The position numbers and the translations under genes are program-made. Below the pieces are notes generated by a model, which was given only the letters and a program-made list of their open reading frames with translations, was not told the origin of the DNA and did not search any database. This document shows positions 47,606 through 50,046 of a DNA stretch of 64,000 bases, in pieces (position 1 is the first letter of the stretch; every line of letters begins with the position of its first letter). Origin of the DNA: a virus (lineage: Duplodnaviria; Caudoviricetes); the IMG/VR virus record IMGVR_UViG_3300025357_000008, positions 96,001 to 160,000 of that record, one strand, 5' to 3'.

Positions 47606-47995
47606 ATGCCGGACATGTTTAAGGAGATTATACCCTCCATACTTCAAACTAAGAAATGTGTAATAAATGACGAAGTAGACCGTAAGGATTATAAGTCATT
47701 TATCATTAATCGTTCTCTGTCTTATCACAGCGATTGCGTATTGTTTGTCAATGAAATCAACAAGTTCCCTGAACTTGATGTGGATATGCAATACCAGTAT
47801 CTTCTAAATACCATCAGACCTATGAAACGAAAATTTCAACCGTGGCAAAAGTCTGATAAAGAAAAGAATATTGATGTAGTGAAAGAGTTCTTTGGCTACT
47901 CAAATGCTAAGGCCAAAGAGGCTTTACGTATTCTTACCGATGAGCAAATCGCTGAAATAAAAATAAGAATAGATAAAGGCGGAATGAAAAAATGA
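47606..47995 (+). CDS. gp62: clamp loader small subunit gp62
   Basis: Y..FIINRSLSY, QY.YLLN.IRP.KR, FGYSNAKA.EAL.IL. Confidence 0.92.
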   Translation: MPDMFKEIIPSILQTKKCVINDEVDRKDYKSFIINRSLSYHSDCVLFVNEINKFPELDVDMQYQYLLNTIRPMKRKFQPWQKSDKEKNIDVVKEFFGYSNAKAKEALRILTDEQIAEIKIRIDKGGMKK

Positions 47996-48399
47996 TTAAT
48001 ATTACCGATTTAGTTGAGGTGACTTTGAATGAAAAAGATGATTTTCTCAAAGTCAGAGAGACTCTAACTCGTATCGGTGTAGCATCCAAAAAAGACAGAA
48101 CACTATACCAATCTTGTCATATCCTGCACAAGAAAGGTCTTTACTACTTAGTTCACTTCAAAGAACTATTTGCACTTGATGGAAAGCCTACCGATATCAC
48201 AGAAAACGATTTATCTCGTAGGAACGCTATTGCAAACCTATTAGAAGATTGGGGTCTGATTAAGATAGTCAAAAAAGAACAAACAGCAACACCAGAGCCA
48301 ATCTTTTTGTCACAAGTCAAAATTCTGTCTCACAAAGAGAAGAATGAGTGGCAATTAGTACCGAAATATAATATCGGTAAAAAACCTCAAAAGGATTGA
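47992..48399 (+). CDS. regA: translational repressor RegA
   Basis: DDFLKVRETLTRIGVAS, LYQSCHILHK, VHFKELF.LDG. Confidence 0.97.
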   Translation: MINITDLVEVTLNEKDDFLKVRETLTRIGVASKKDRTLYQSCHILHKKGLYYLVHFKELFALDGKPTDITENDLSRRNAIANLLEDWGLIKIVKKEQTATPEPIFLSQVKILSHKEKNEWQLVPKYNIGKKPQKD

Positions 48400-48484: not shown

Positions 48485-48934
48485 ATGCTATCACTAGCAG
48501 ATATTAAATCGTTTCAAAAATCTTTTGACCCATTCGCTGTGGGCTTTTTTGATGACTTACACGGTCTTGCCCAACTAGCGGCAAAAAACCTCCCCAAATA
48601 TCCACCATACAATATCAAACAAGTTGACGATAACAAATTCGTCATCGAGATGGCAGTCGCCGGATTCTCAAAACAAGATATTGAAGTGACACTCAAAGGA
48701 AACTCTTTGGTTGTTAATGGTAATATCAATGACAATAAAGATGCTGAAGTTAAGGATCAATACCTTTATAAAGGAATTGCTGACAGAGCCTTCACGCACG
48801 AGTTCAAGATTGCCGATAAGGTTGAAATCAAGAACGCTGAAATGGTCAACGGTATGTTGAAAATTTGGTTAGAGAATATGGTAAAAGCACAAGATGCGGT
48901 CAAGAAAATAACCATAAATACCAAAGATGAATAA
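48485..48934 (+). CDS. small heat shock protein Hsp20 (IbpA-like)
   Basis: YPPYNI, IEMAVAGF, YLYKGIA.R.F, NGML.I. Confidence 0.93.
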   Translation: MLSLADIKSFQKSFDPFAVGFFDDLHGLAQLAAKNLPKYPPYNIKQVDDNKFVIEMAVAGFSKQDIEVTLKGNSLVVNGNINDNKDAEVKDQYLYKGIADRAFTHEFKIADKVEIKNAEMVNGMLKIWLENMVKAQDAVKKITINTKDE

Positions 48935-49025: not shown

Positions 49026-49052
49026 AAGGGGTCTTGACAGACCCCTTTTTTT
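49026..49052 (+). terminator. intrinsic terminator whose loop is a -35 box
   Basis: AAGGGGTC-TTGACA-GACCCCTT-TTTTT. Confidence 0.8.
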
Positions 49053-49062
49053 ATAGTAGAAT
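49034..49062 (+). promoter_or_regulatory. sigma70-type promoter P1
   Basis: TTGACA-17-TAGAAT; predicted TSS near ATG 49069. Confidence 0.7.
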
Positions 49063-49426: not shown

Positions 49427-49467
49427 TTTATTTTCGGTAATGATGTAGTAAAAACACAACAAATGTA

Positions 49468-49496
49468 TTGACAAGAATTAAAAATTGCTATATAAT
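49468..49496 (+). promoter_or_regulatory. sigma70 consensus promoter P2, upstream of the leader ORF and main tRNA array
   Basis: TTGACA-17-TATAAT, perfect consensus. Confidence 0.88.
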
Positions 49497-49531
49497 AGAG
49501 ACTTATTAAATTAATTAAGAAAGAAATAAAA

Positions 49532-49621
49532 ATGTTTACGAAACCGACATCCCATATAAGTTATCGCACAGAGATTTGCGATAATCAATCATGGGCCTTC
49601 CCAAAAGGGGTTTCTGTATAA
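49532..49621 (+). CDS. putative attenuator leader peptide MFTKPTSHISYRTEICDNQSWAFPKGVSV
   Basis: ATG after purine-rich AAGAAAGA; 19 of 20 amino acids; 3' end complementary to the terminator arm. Confidence 0.7.
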   Translation: MFTKPTSHISYRTEICDNQSWAFPKGVSV

Positions 49622-49654
49622 GTTTTTAATCTAAGAGATTATACACAAACCCCT
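49606..49654 (+). promoter_or_regulatory. putative antiterminator hairpin
   Basis: AGGGGTTTCTGTATAA(49606-49621) pairs 15/16 with TTATACACAAACCCCT(49639-49654). Confidence 0.75.
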
Positions 49655-49683
49655 AGCGTAAAAACTAGGGGTTTTTTGTTTTT
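49647..49683 (+). terminator. intrinsic terminator (attenuator) immediately before tRNA-Ser
   Basis: AAACCCCTAG-8 nt loop-CTAGGGGTTT followed by TTTGTTTTT. Confidence 0.88.
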
Positions 49684-49775
49684 GGAAGTTGATGCAGGTG
49701 CGTTGGTGCGCCGACCAGCCTTGAAAACTGGGTTCTCAGAAATGGGATGGGGTTCGACTCCTCCGACTTCCGCCA
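49684..49775 (+). tRNA. tRNA-Ser(UGA), 8/4-type structure
   Basis: GGAAGTTG/CGACTTCC acceptor, 4-bp T stem, 6-bp D stem, long variable arm, G73, CCA. Confidence 0.85.
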
Positions 49776-49782
49776 GTATTTT

Positions 49783-49869
49783 GGAAGATGTGTTGCAAGG
49801 TGCGACAGAGGTTTGCTAAACCTTCGTTCAGAAATGGGCAGATAGGTTCGATTCCTATATCTTCCGCCA
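49783..49869 (+). tRNA. tRNA-Ser(GCU)
   Basis: Loop TT-GCT-AA, long variable arm, G73, CCA. Confidence 0.9.
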
Positions 49870-49875
49870 GGATAT

Positions 49876-49951
49876 GTACGTGTGACCCGAAAGGCTAGGG
49901 AGCAGATTGCAAATCTGTTTTATGTAGGTTCGATTCCTATCACGTACTCCA
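49876..49951 (+). tRNA. tRNA-Cys(GCA)
   Basis: Loop TT-GCA-AA, U73, CCA. Confidence 0.92.
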
Positions 49952-49983: not shown

Positions 49984-50012
49984 TTGACAAATGATTTTTA
50001 GTGTGTTACACT
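49984..50012 (+). promoter_or_regulatory. sigma70-type promoter P3 inside the tRNA array
   Basis: TTGACA-17-TACACT with extended TG. Confidence 0.75.
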
Positions 50013-50019
50013 AGAGTCT

Positions 50020-50030
50020 GTTCTTTAAAA
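50020..50030 (+). promoter_or_regulatory. boxA-like Nus antitermination element
   Basis: GTTCTTTAAAA matches GYTCTTTAANA. Confidence 0.6.
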
Positions 50031-50046
50031 ATTTGAGGTAGTTTTT

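Follow-up and report, generated by a model that had tools for sequence, protein, structure and literature searches.

A leader peptide of nearly all amino acids in front of phage tRNA genes: a candidate attenuator responding to decoding speed

What is a short open reading frame, built from almost every amino acid, doing between a perfect promoter and an intrinsic terminator that directly precedes the tRNA genes of a phage? To our knowledge, the regulation of phage tRNA genes has hardly been addressed so far. The purpose of these genes has been debated for about 50 years, and codon compensation, host tRNA decay and escape from tRNA-cutting defences have all been put forward (e.g. PMC10264068, PMC11555353).

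The window analysed here, a stretch of 64,000 nucleotides, corresponds to bases 96001-160000 of a 170,261-base IMG/VR virus record that is judged complete, and its G+C content is 37%. The source virus is a distant T4-like phage and is uncultured. In the GenBank phage collection, only distant regA and tRNA similarity to T4-like phages was found; neither the leader of the window nor that of a relative was matched there, and the collection gave no cultured carrier. The tRNA island comprises 24 genes called by ARAGORN and one that ARAGORN misses, which was recovered with Rfam. The features on which the argument depends are the following, in coordinates of the window.

47992-48399: regA homologue
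48485-48934: Hsp20-like gene
49468-49496, + strand: promoter P1, with TTGACA (49468-49473), a 17-nt spacer and TATAAT (49491-49496), read directly and given a scan score of 12/12
49516-49522, + strand: weak purine-rich ribosome-binding stretch AAGAAAG, 10-16 nt before the ATG
49532-49621, + strand: leader ORF of 29 codons and TAA, MFTKPTSHISYRTEICDNQSWAFPKGVSV
49560-49585, + strand: conserved hairpin inside the ORF, codons 10-18, with the core TATCGCA/TGCGATA
49606-49621, + strand: 5' arm of the putative antiterminator, the last 13 coding nt and the stop codon, pairing 15/16 with the 3' arm
49639-49654, + strand: 3' arm of the putative antiterminator; the terminator 5' arm begins with its last 8 nt (49647-49654)
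49647-49683, + strand: intrinsic terminator with a 10-bp stem (49647-49656/49665-49674), an 8-nt loop and a T-run
49684-49776, + strand: tRNA-Ser(UGA)-like gene, the one next after the terminator; its variable arm is long
49783-49951, + strand: tRNA-Ser(GCU) and tRNA-Cys(GCA), called by ARAGORN
49984-50034, + strand: internal promoter P3, TTGACA-17-TACACT with a TG extension, plus the 16-mer TGTTCTTTAAAAATTT

A first-pass annotation of this DNA had described the succession of promoter, ORF, terminator and first tRNA gene, and all its coordinates and anatomy proved correct by direct reading and with the tools used. P1, which shares its perfect 12/12 score with two other promoters in the 11 kb scanned, is of the host sigma70 type and is thus probably a phage early promoter. 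The leader ORF starts 35 nt past its -10 hexamer; typical genes of this phage use GGAG/AGGA as ribosome-binding site. The terminator stem contains 5 G-C pairs and is followed by the T-run TTTTTTGTTTTT (49675-49683). The tRNA-Ser(UGA)-like gene behind it is called as tRNA-Ser(tga) by ARAGORN with relaxed settings only, the default run missing it, and gives a sub-threshold match (49684-49771, 35.5 bits) to the tRNA-Sec model of Rfam, which belongs to the tRNA clan; a 7-bp acceptor stem and an encoded CCA can be read by eye. The gene is of type II with an unusual D-arm, and its homologue is likewise missed in the relatives L001-L003 and L007. Upstream of the P1 region, a bidirectional terminator-like hairpin (AAGGGGTCTTGACAGACCCCTT) is found at 49026-49062, whose loop and 3' arm contain the -35 hexamer TTGACA of the next promoter (49034-49062); this promoter drives a 67-aa ORF and two tRNAs (Arg-UCU, Met) that lie upstream of P1.

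The peptide encoded between P1 and the terminator contains 19 different amino acids, Leu being the missing one, and 27 different codons among its 29, so that the counts given in the first-pass annotation were reproduced. At least 19 different residues in 29 are found in 5e-4 of windows taken from the phage's own proteins and, in the random-ORF simulation that had been proposed as a check, in 1.5e-3 of random draws. Among the fetched loci, ORFs of 40 codons or fewer that reach 19 different residues by chance also exist, and the diversity of the window ORF, taken alone, is suggestive and not decisive; the weight of the argument lies with the relatives. It had also been claimed that repeated residues switch codon. 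The 27 distinct codons compare with a null mean of 24.5 (P = 0.07), which is not above chance, and this argument was dropped. As for codon usage, the codons of the leader are rarer than those of the phage genes (mean RSCU 1.14 vs 1.40, P = 0.012), ACG, CCG, TCC, CGC, GCC and GGG being examples, and several of the rare codons fall in helices.

Does the diversity recur in other phages? Relatives were sought around Hsp20 homologues in IMG/VR, which gave leaders in L014, L001-L003 and L007; a small profile added divergent leaders (L005, L048, L066, L076, L021 and L080), and a DNA pattern scan gave 116 further stretches, in which GAGTATCGCACA and TCATGG are fixed by the pattern and hence invariant by construction. 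After deduplication, 60 distinct homologous leader peptides of 29-44 residues were obtained, from uncultured phage contigs and beside tRNA arrays. All 20 amino acids occur in about 45 of the 60 leaders (31-44 residues), 19 occur in 12, and 17-18 in the other three, while a stricter start-codon rule leaves all 20 in 29 of 51 leaders. By comparison, none of 16,479 31-residue windows from the phage's own proteins holds all 20, and random 31-37-mers do so with a frequency of 1.5e-4 to 1.4e-3. When the 80 Hsp20-neighbour loci and the window were screened for ATG-started ORFs of 25-40 codons that use all 20 amino acids, nothing but these leaders was returned. No residue is enriched in them, 19-20 different amino acids being used one to four times each, and no run of regulatory codons for the operon's own amino acid(s) was found. 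The leader of the window is the shortest member of the family and among the few that have lost a residue (Leu).

An independent profile search of 1.84 billion protein representatives, free of the bias of the DNA pattern, returned only about 11 small clusters of the leader family, and in the six that were counted by eye (P0001, P0002, P0004, P0005, P0011 and P0014) the leader stretch holds 20 amino acids. The peptides share the motif EYRT..D..SW..G.C, and their alignment has no conserved stretch of 7-10 columns. Almost all of the 60 relatives retain a promoter of the form TTGCCA/TTGACA-17-TATAAT, and a tRNA gene lies within 269 nt in all 57 members with enough downstream DNA. Initiation signals are more diverse, with AGAAAG or GGAG as ribosome-binding stretch and ATG, GTG or TTG as start. 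In L183, L186, L196, L198, L090, L121 and others, the leader ATG stands 6 nt past the -10 hexamer, and the leader mRNA is thus probably leaderless.

The presence of the leader is patchy. In L014 it has no sigma70 promoter of its own and follows an upstream gene directly, a 183-aa gene with an HExxH motif; in L009 the same gene abuts tRNA-Cys, and L009 and its kin, although close relatives, have a tRNA array without a leader. Bases 7279-7442 of L014 and 49520-49683 of the window show 90% DNA identity, the neighbouring Hsp20 proteins being only 61% identical. These comparisons suggest that the leader module may have been gained, lost or exchanged between lineages.

Is the amino-acid coverage maintained, or is it simply inherited? 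The observed number of 20/20 peptides was reached in none of 5000 column shuffles, in which residues are permuted within alignment columns so that composition is kept and within-sequence combinations are broken, a treatment that does not fully remove phylogenetic relatedness. Among 14 representatives of less than 70% identity, eight have all 20 amino acids compared with 0.9 expected (P < 2e-4), and among eight representatives of less than 55% identity the figures are five observed and 0.34 expected. Moreover, His, Lys, Leu, Gln, Val and Cys are drawn from alignment columns that differ between lineages; His, for instance, is placed near the N terminus in L076 and past the Trp in L113. To judge from these alignments, amino-acid coverage is maintained, beyond mere inheritance, and a conserved leader of all amino acids is hard to explain other than as a test of decoding.

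The end of the ORF is tied to the terminator by base pairing. As had been noticed at first reading, its last 16 nt pair 15/16 with 49639-49654 and compete with the terminator for 49647-49654. When the nascent stretch 49600-49664 is folded, the antiterminator results (-20.4 kcal/mol, z = -5.3). For the full-length RNA 49600-49684, the preferred structure is the terminator together with the upper half of the hairpin (-24.9 kcal/mol), and removal of the 5' arm leaves the terminator alone (-17.8 kcal/mol). This geometry is general in the family: the 54 distinct arm pairs all have their 5' arm in the final 12-36 nt of the ORF, and their 3' arm extends over 6-12 nt of the terminator stem (8 nt in the window). 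The arms pair with a mean energy of -20.0 kcal/mol with their own partners, compared with -15.4 for the arms of other members and -11.2 for shuffled arms; the terminator hairpins average -13.8 kcal/mol across the family.

In an alignment of 69 sequences, 70% of the antiterminator cells pair, against 37-50% with partners slid, and the covariation score was exceeded in none of 500 shuffles. One covarying position is occupied by U-A (27), U-G (29) or C-G (3), and a second by U-A (41), G-U (18) or A-U (3). The distance from the stop codon to the terminator is 23-34 nt in every member, and the sequence of the terminator stem varies by lineage with its pairing always kept. Since MAFFT misaligns the variable terminator stems, the count of terminator pairs is uninformative, and terminators were therefore detected per sequence and not from MAFFT columns.

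The hairpin reported within the ORF was also recovered (49560-49585, -9.9 kcal/mol, z = -4.6), and 79% of its cells are paired across the 69 sequences. The changes in this hairpin are one-sided only. By analogy with trp, this hairpin may pause RNA polymerase until the ribosome comes. The sequence TCATGG after the hairpin was considered as a consensus pause site; by eye it suits only some members, and it is left as speculation.

Four structural parts by which an attenuator is recognised are at hand. A short promoter-proximal ORF precedes the regulated genes in the window and in the 60 relatives, an intrinsic terminator separates the two in the window and in all relatives, the antiterminator excludes the terminator and is backed by conservation and covariation, and a terminating ribosome would cover the 5' arm, as indicated by the placement of the arm and by the mask proxy described below. 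The same data bear on two explanations of another kind. One is that promoter, ORF and terminator are a monocistronic small gene, whose peptide of 29-44 residues acts in trans and whose proximity to tRNA genes is unrelated to its function. The unit does have its own promoter and terminator, the motif EYRT..D..SW..G.C is conserved, the tRNAs have a separate promoter in most relatives, and trans-acting leader peptides are known (peTrpL, PMC7298713). Single-nucleotide codon differences among the leaders, however, divide into 4282 synonymous and 8470 non-synonymous ones, which indicates that the sequence of the peptide is weakly constrained and its composition held. An insertion of one nucleotide in L014 changes the C-terminal frame and leaves the arm nucleotides and the switch in place, the new frame still giving 19 residues. 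Nor does the leader peptide match any family in PHROGs, and the non-coding 3' arm is conserved as well as the ORF and covaries with its end. As a separate gene would account for neither the antiterminator nor the 20/20 coverage, we hold this explanation to be very unlikely.

The opposite explanation is that the frame is untranslated and the P1 transcript acts as RNA, either as a structured small RNA or as a leader with a protein or a tRNA as its ligand. The whole transcript, roughly 180 nt (49503-49684), is indeed unusually structured (z = -5.4), the ribosome-binding site is weak, and terminated attenuator RNAs can act in trans (rnTrpL, PMC6614838). Against this, the frame is open in 60 of 60 variants, with its start just past the promoter and its stop fixed relative to the arm, and a maintained amino-acid coverage matters only with translation. 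On the + strand of 49430-49683 no Rfam family was matched, neither leader families nor T-box, the sole match being a chance-level hit to STnc490 on the - strand (E = 0.12). An exclusively non-coding function seems most unlikely to us, and we infer that the leader ORF is translated.

How could translation of the leader decide between the two helices? In equilibrium folding with ribosome masks, the terminator was favoured at almost every ribosome position, and in the equilibrium fold the 5' arm has the start region as its partner. The decision must consequently be kinetic; in the trp attenuator, too, the terminator wins at equilibrium. As the equilibrium masks failed to separate the states, a nascent-RNA proxy was used, in which only the RNA available just before the terminator 3' arm emerges is folded and 28 nt are masked around the A-site codon. 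For the window, the proxy predicts the antiterminator with the A site at codons 2-21, partly at codon 22, or in untranslated RNA, and its loss once the A site has reached codon 23, up to and including the stop. A near-identical on/off map was obtained for nearly all 60 leaders with this proxy, which cannot model a ribosome in the loop of long-tailed relatives, and untranslated RNA gives the antiterminator in most members. The two behaviours that had been proposed from the window are reproduced by this folding: a ribosome on the last eight codons or so, or on the stop, masks the antiterminator arm and lets the terminator form, and a stall at roughly the first 20 codons (2 to about 21 in the proxy), or no translation, leads to read-through.

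The reading that we favour, with a probability of roughly 0.6, is that of a ribosome-dependent attenuator placed before phage tRNA genes and sensing general decoding speed. Host RNA polymerase would start at P1 and transcribe the 29-codon leader, whereupon 49606-49621 would pair with 49639-49654 to give the antiterminator, which would occupy 8 nt of the terminator 5' arm. A ribosome at about the last eight codons or the stop would cover the 5' arm, the terminator would form, and P1 transcripts would end at 49683. Were the ribosome late, with its A site in codons 2 to about 21, or had it never started, the antiterminator would form first; P1 transcripts would then run into tRNA-Ser, tRNA-Ser and tRNA-Cys and supplement the P3-driven transcription of the rest. 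With nearly every amino acid present one or two times, the ribosome should be held back when almost any charged tRNA runs short, and fresh phage tRNAs would restore termination, which would make a feedback loop. On this model, the phage probably makes more tRNA when ribosomes read slowly. The arrangement of the sequence leads us to infer a race of ribosome against polymerase, and likewise the physiological signal. With a weak ribosome-binding site and with untranslated RNA predicted to read through, basal read-through could be high.

How much of the tRNA array would be under this control? The first-pass annotation spoke of a leader gating the array and remarked that P3 could restrict control to the Ser/Ser/Cys tRNAs. 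The restriction is real, as the tRNA-Ser(UGA)-like gene, tRNA-Ser(GCU) and tRNA-Cys(GCA) are the only genes that lie solely behind the terminator and before P3 (49984); gating in the strict sense would apply to these three only, and the rest of the array would also be served by P3. P3 and its 16-mer are homologous to a promoter that directly follows the terminator in most relatives. A near-consensus promoter is found between the terminator and the first tRNA, in a gap of about 85 nt, in 49 of 57 relatives, and the first tRNA after this gap is usually tRNA-Gln; the terminator also abuts a tRNA in L190 and in L128/L132/L134. Given this second promoter in the relatives, and P3 here, the switch would add to tRNA transcription and not be its sole gate: P1-driven read-through would supplement a constitutive baseline, and the array does not depend on read-through. 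The exact 16-mer TGTTCTTTAAAAATTT (50019-50034 in the window) stands after the -10 of the internal promoter before tRNA blocks and is present in 74 of 199 fetched loci, sometimes twice per locus; its role could be that of a conserved initial transcribed sequence, or of a regulatory one, in the tRNA precursor.

The range of amino acids that would be sensed is likewise wide and incomplete. In the window, 15 elongation amino acids are predicted to be sensed in full and Ala partly (16 counting Ala); Gly and Val fall inside the masked arm and would not be sensed, Leu is absent, and there is no elongator Met codon. In the proxy, the claim that almost any tRNA failure would be felt applies to 15-16 amino acids and fails for Gly and Val. 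Across the leaders, the sensed part averages 24.7 codons and 16.6 amino acids, and in the relatives Val and Gly, and in many cases His, Ala and Trp, are confined to the masked arm or its vicinity; the sequence of the arm, GGG GTT/TTT TGT GTA, itself encodes these residues. Up to and including the conserved Ser-Trp, the leaders average 18.1 different residues in 26.4, well above expectation, 18 being reached by just 0.3% of 27-residue windows from the phage's proteins. When N- and C-terminal parts are taken from the same leader, all 20 amino acids are present in 74% of cases, compared with 44% for mixed parts, so that the tail seems to count. The simple steric model does not account for this tail coverage.

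It may be asked whether the attenuator reads codons at all. A translation-dependent attenuator could report only the initiation or pace of ribosomes, residue diversity being a by-product; its signal would then be the shut-off of host translation, the availability of ribosomes or the phase of infection, or else the device would keep the strong P1 insulated from the promoter downstream. Read-through is predicted for untranslated RNA, initiation varies widely among relatives (weak SD, GTG/TTG starts, leaderless mRNAs), a second promoter stands right after the terminator in most of them, and Val and Gly codons lie in the blind tail, all of which suits such a device. It would, however, leave unexplained the 45 of 60 peptides with all 20 amino acids, their excess over column shuffles and the relocation of rare residues. 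In addition, the part before the arm alone averages 18 different residues in 26, a number that 0.3% of 27-residue windows in the phage's proteins attain. We therefore regard a diversity that is only a by-product as rather unlikely, and return to an attenuator that senses decoding speed. What remains of the original interpretation is the attenuator architecture, strongly supported through the relatives; sole gating, full sensing and codon switching have fallen away.

A further step would be to regard the element as a pan-tRNA surveillance switch, in which any slow decoding boosts the phage tRNA genes and the new tRNAs shut the switch off. We put this forward tentatively, as a possibility to which we give somewhat less than even odds. 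Host tRNA decay, amino-acid starvation or cleavage of host tRNA by anticodon nucleases could be the triggers, and the link to anti-phage anticodon nucleases, or to host tRNA-cutting defences in general, is speculation. If such a switch exists, the phage measures decoding capacity and adjusts its tRNA supply, and the debate on phage tRNA genes becomes one about a directly testable switch. Classical attenuation would be extended from sensors of single amino acids to a general sensor of translation speed, and the element would be a regulated arm of phage counter-defence. It would also be a compact natural part, of about 220 bp, that reports tRNA or amino-acid limitation. In the literature, no account of an all-amino-acid leader, or of attenuation of phage tRNA genes, was found; if the reading is true, this would be the first leader-peptide attenuator known for tRNA genes and the first to sense the whole aminoacyl-tRNA pool.

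Several known systems share parts of this design. In Sinorhizobium, the attenuator-derived RNA rnTrpL and peptide peTrpL act in trans (PMC6614838, PMC7298713). As in that case, the terminated leader RNA and the peptide of the phage would be abundant and could have second functions, a likeness that we mention as a possibility only. T-box riboswitches resemble the phage element in the choice between terminator and antiterminator, and they report tRNA charging and control translation-related genes, as the phage element may; a T-box, however, binds uncharged tRNA directly and needs no ORF, whereas here the ORF is conserved and no T-box is matched.

The wiring is that of the enterobacterial leader-peptide attenuators (trpL, hisL, leuL, thrL, pheL and the multivalent ilvGMEDA and thr). 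In both, a short promoter-proximal ORF is followed by a terminator before the regulated genes, the antiterminator shares bases with the terminator, and the position of the ribosome decides, in the phage element presumably, which helix forms. As in the trp-type attenuators, the terminator is more stable but comes later, and a hairpin within the ORF is possibly a pause signal. The enterobacterial leaders are enriched in one to three cognate amino acids, the multivalent ones (ilv, thr) sensing two or three, whereas the phage leader is spread over 19-20; and they regulate biosynthetic enzymes, whereas this element precedes phage tRNAs. Also unlike them, the phage element appears to have no clear 1:2 protector helix, and its untranslated RNA is predicted by the proxy to read through and not to super-attenuate. 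The nearest functional analogue that we know of is the leader of pheST in Escherichia coli (pheM), an attenuator of phenylalanyl-tRNA synthetase that senses Phe. In pheST as in the phage element, a component of translation would be placed under leader-peptide attenuation that responds to the supply of charged tRNA; pheST senses one amino acid and controls a synthetase, whereas the phage leader samples nearly all of them and precedes genes whose products are tRNAs.
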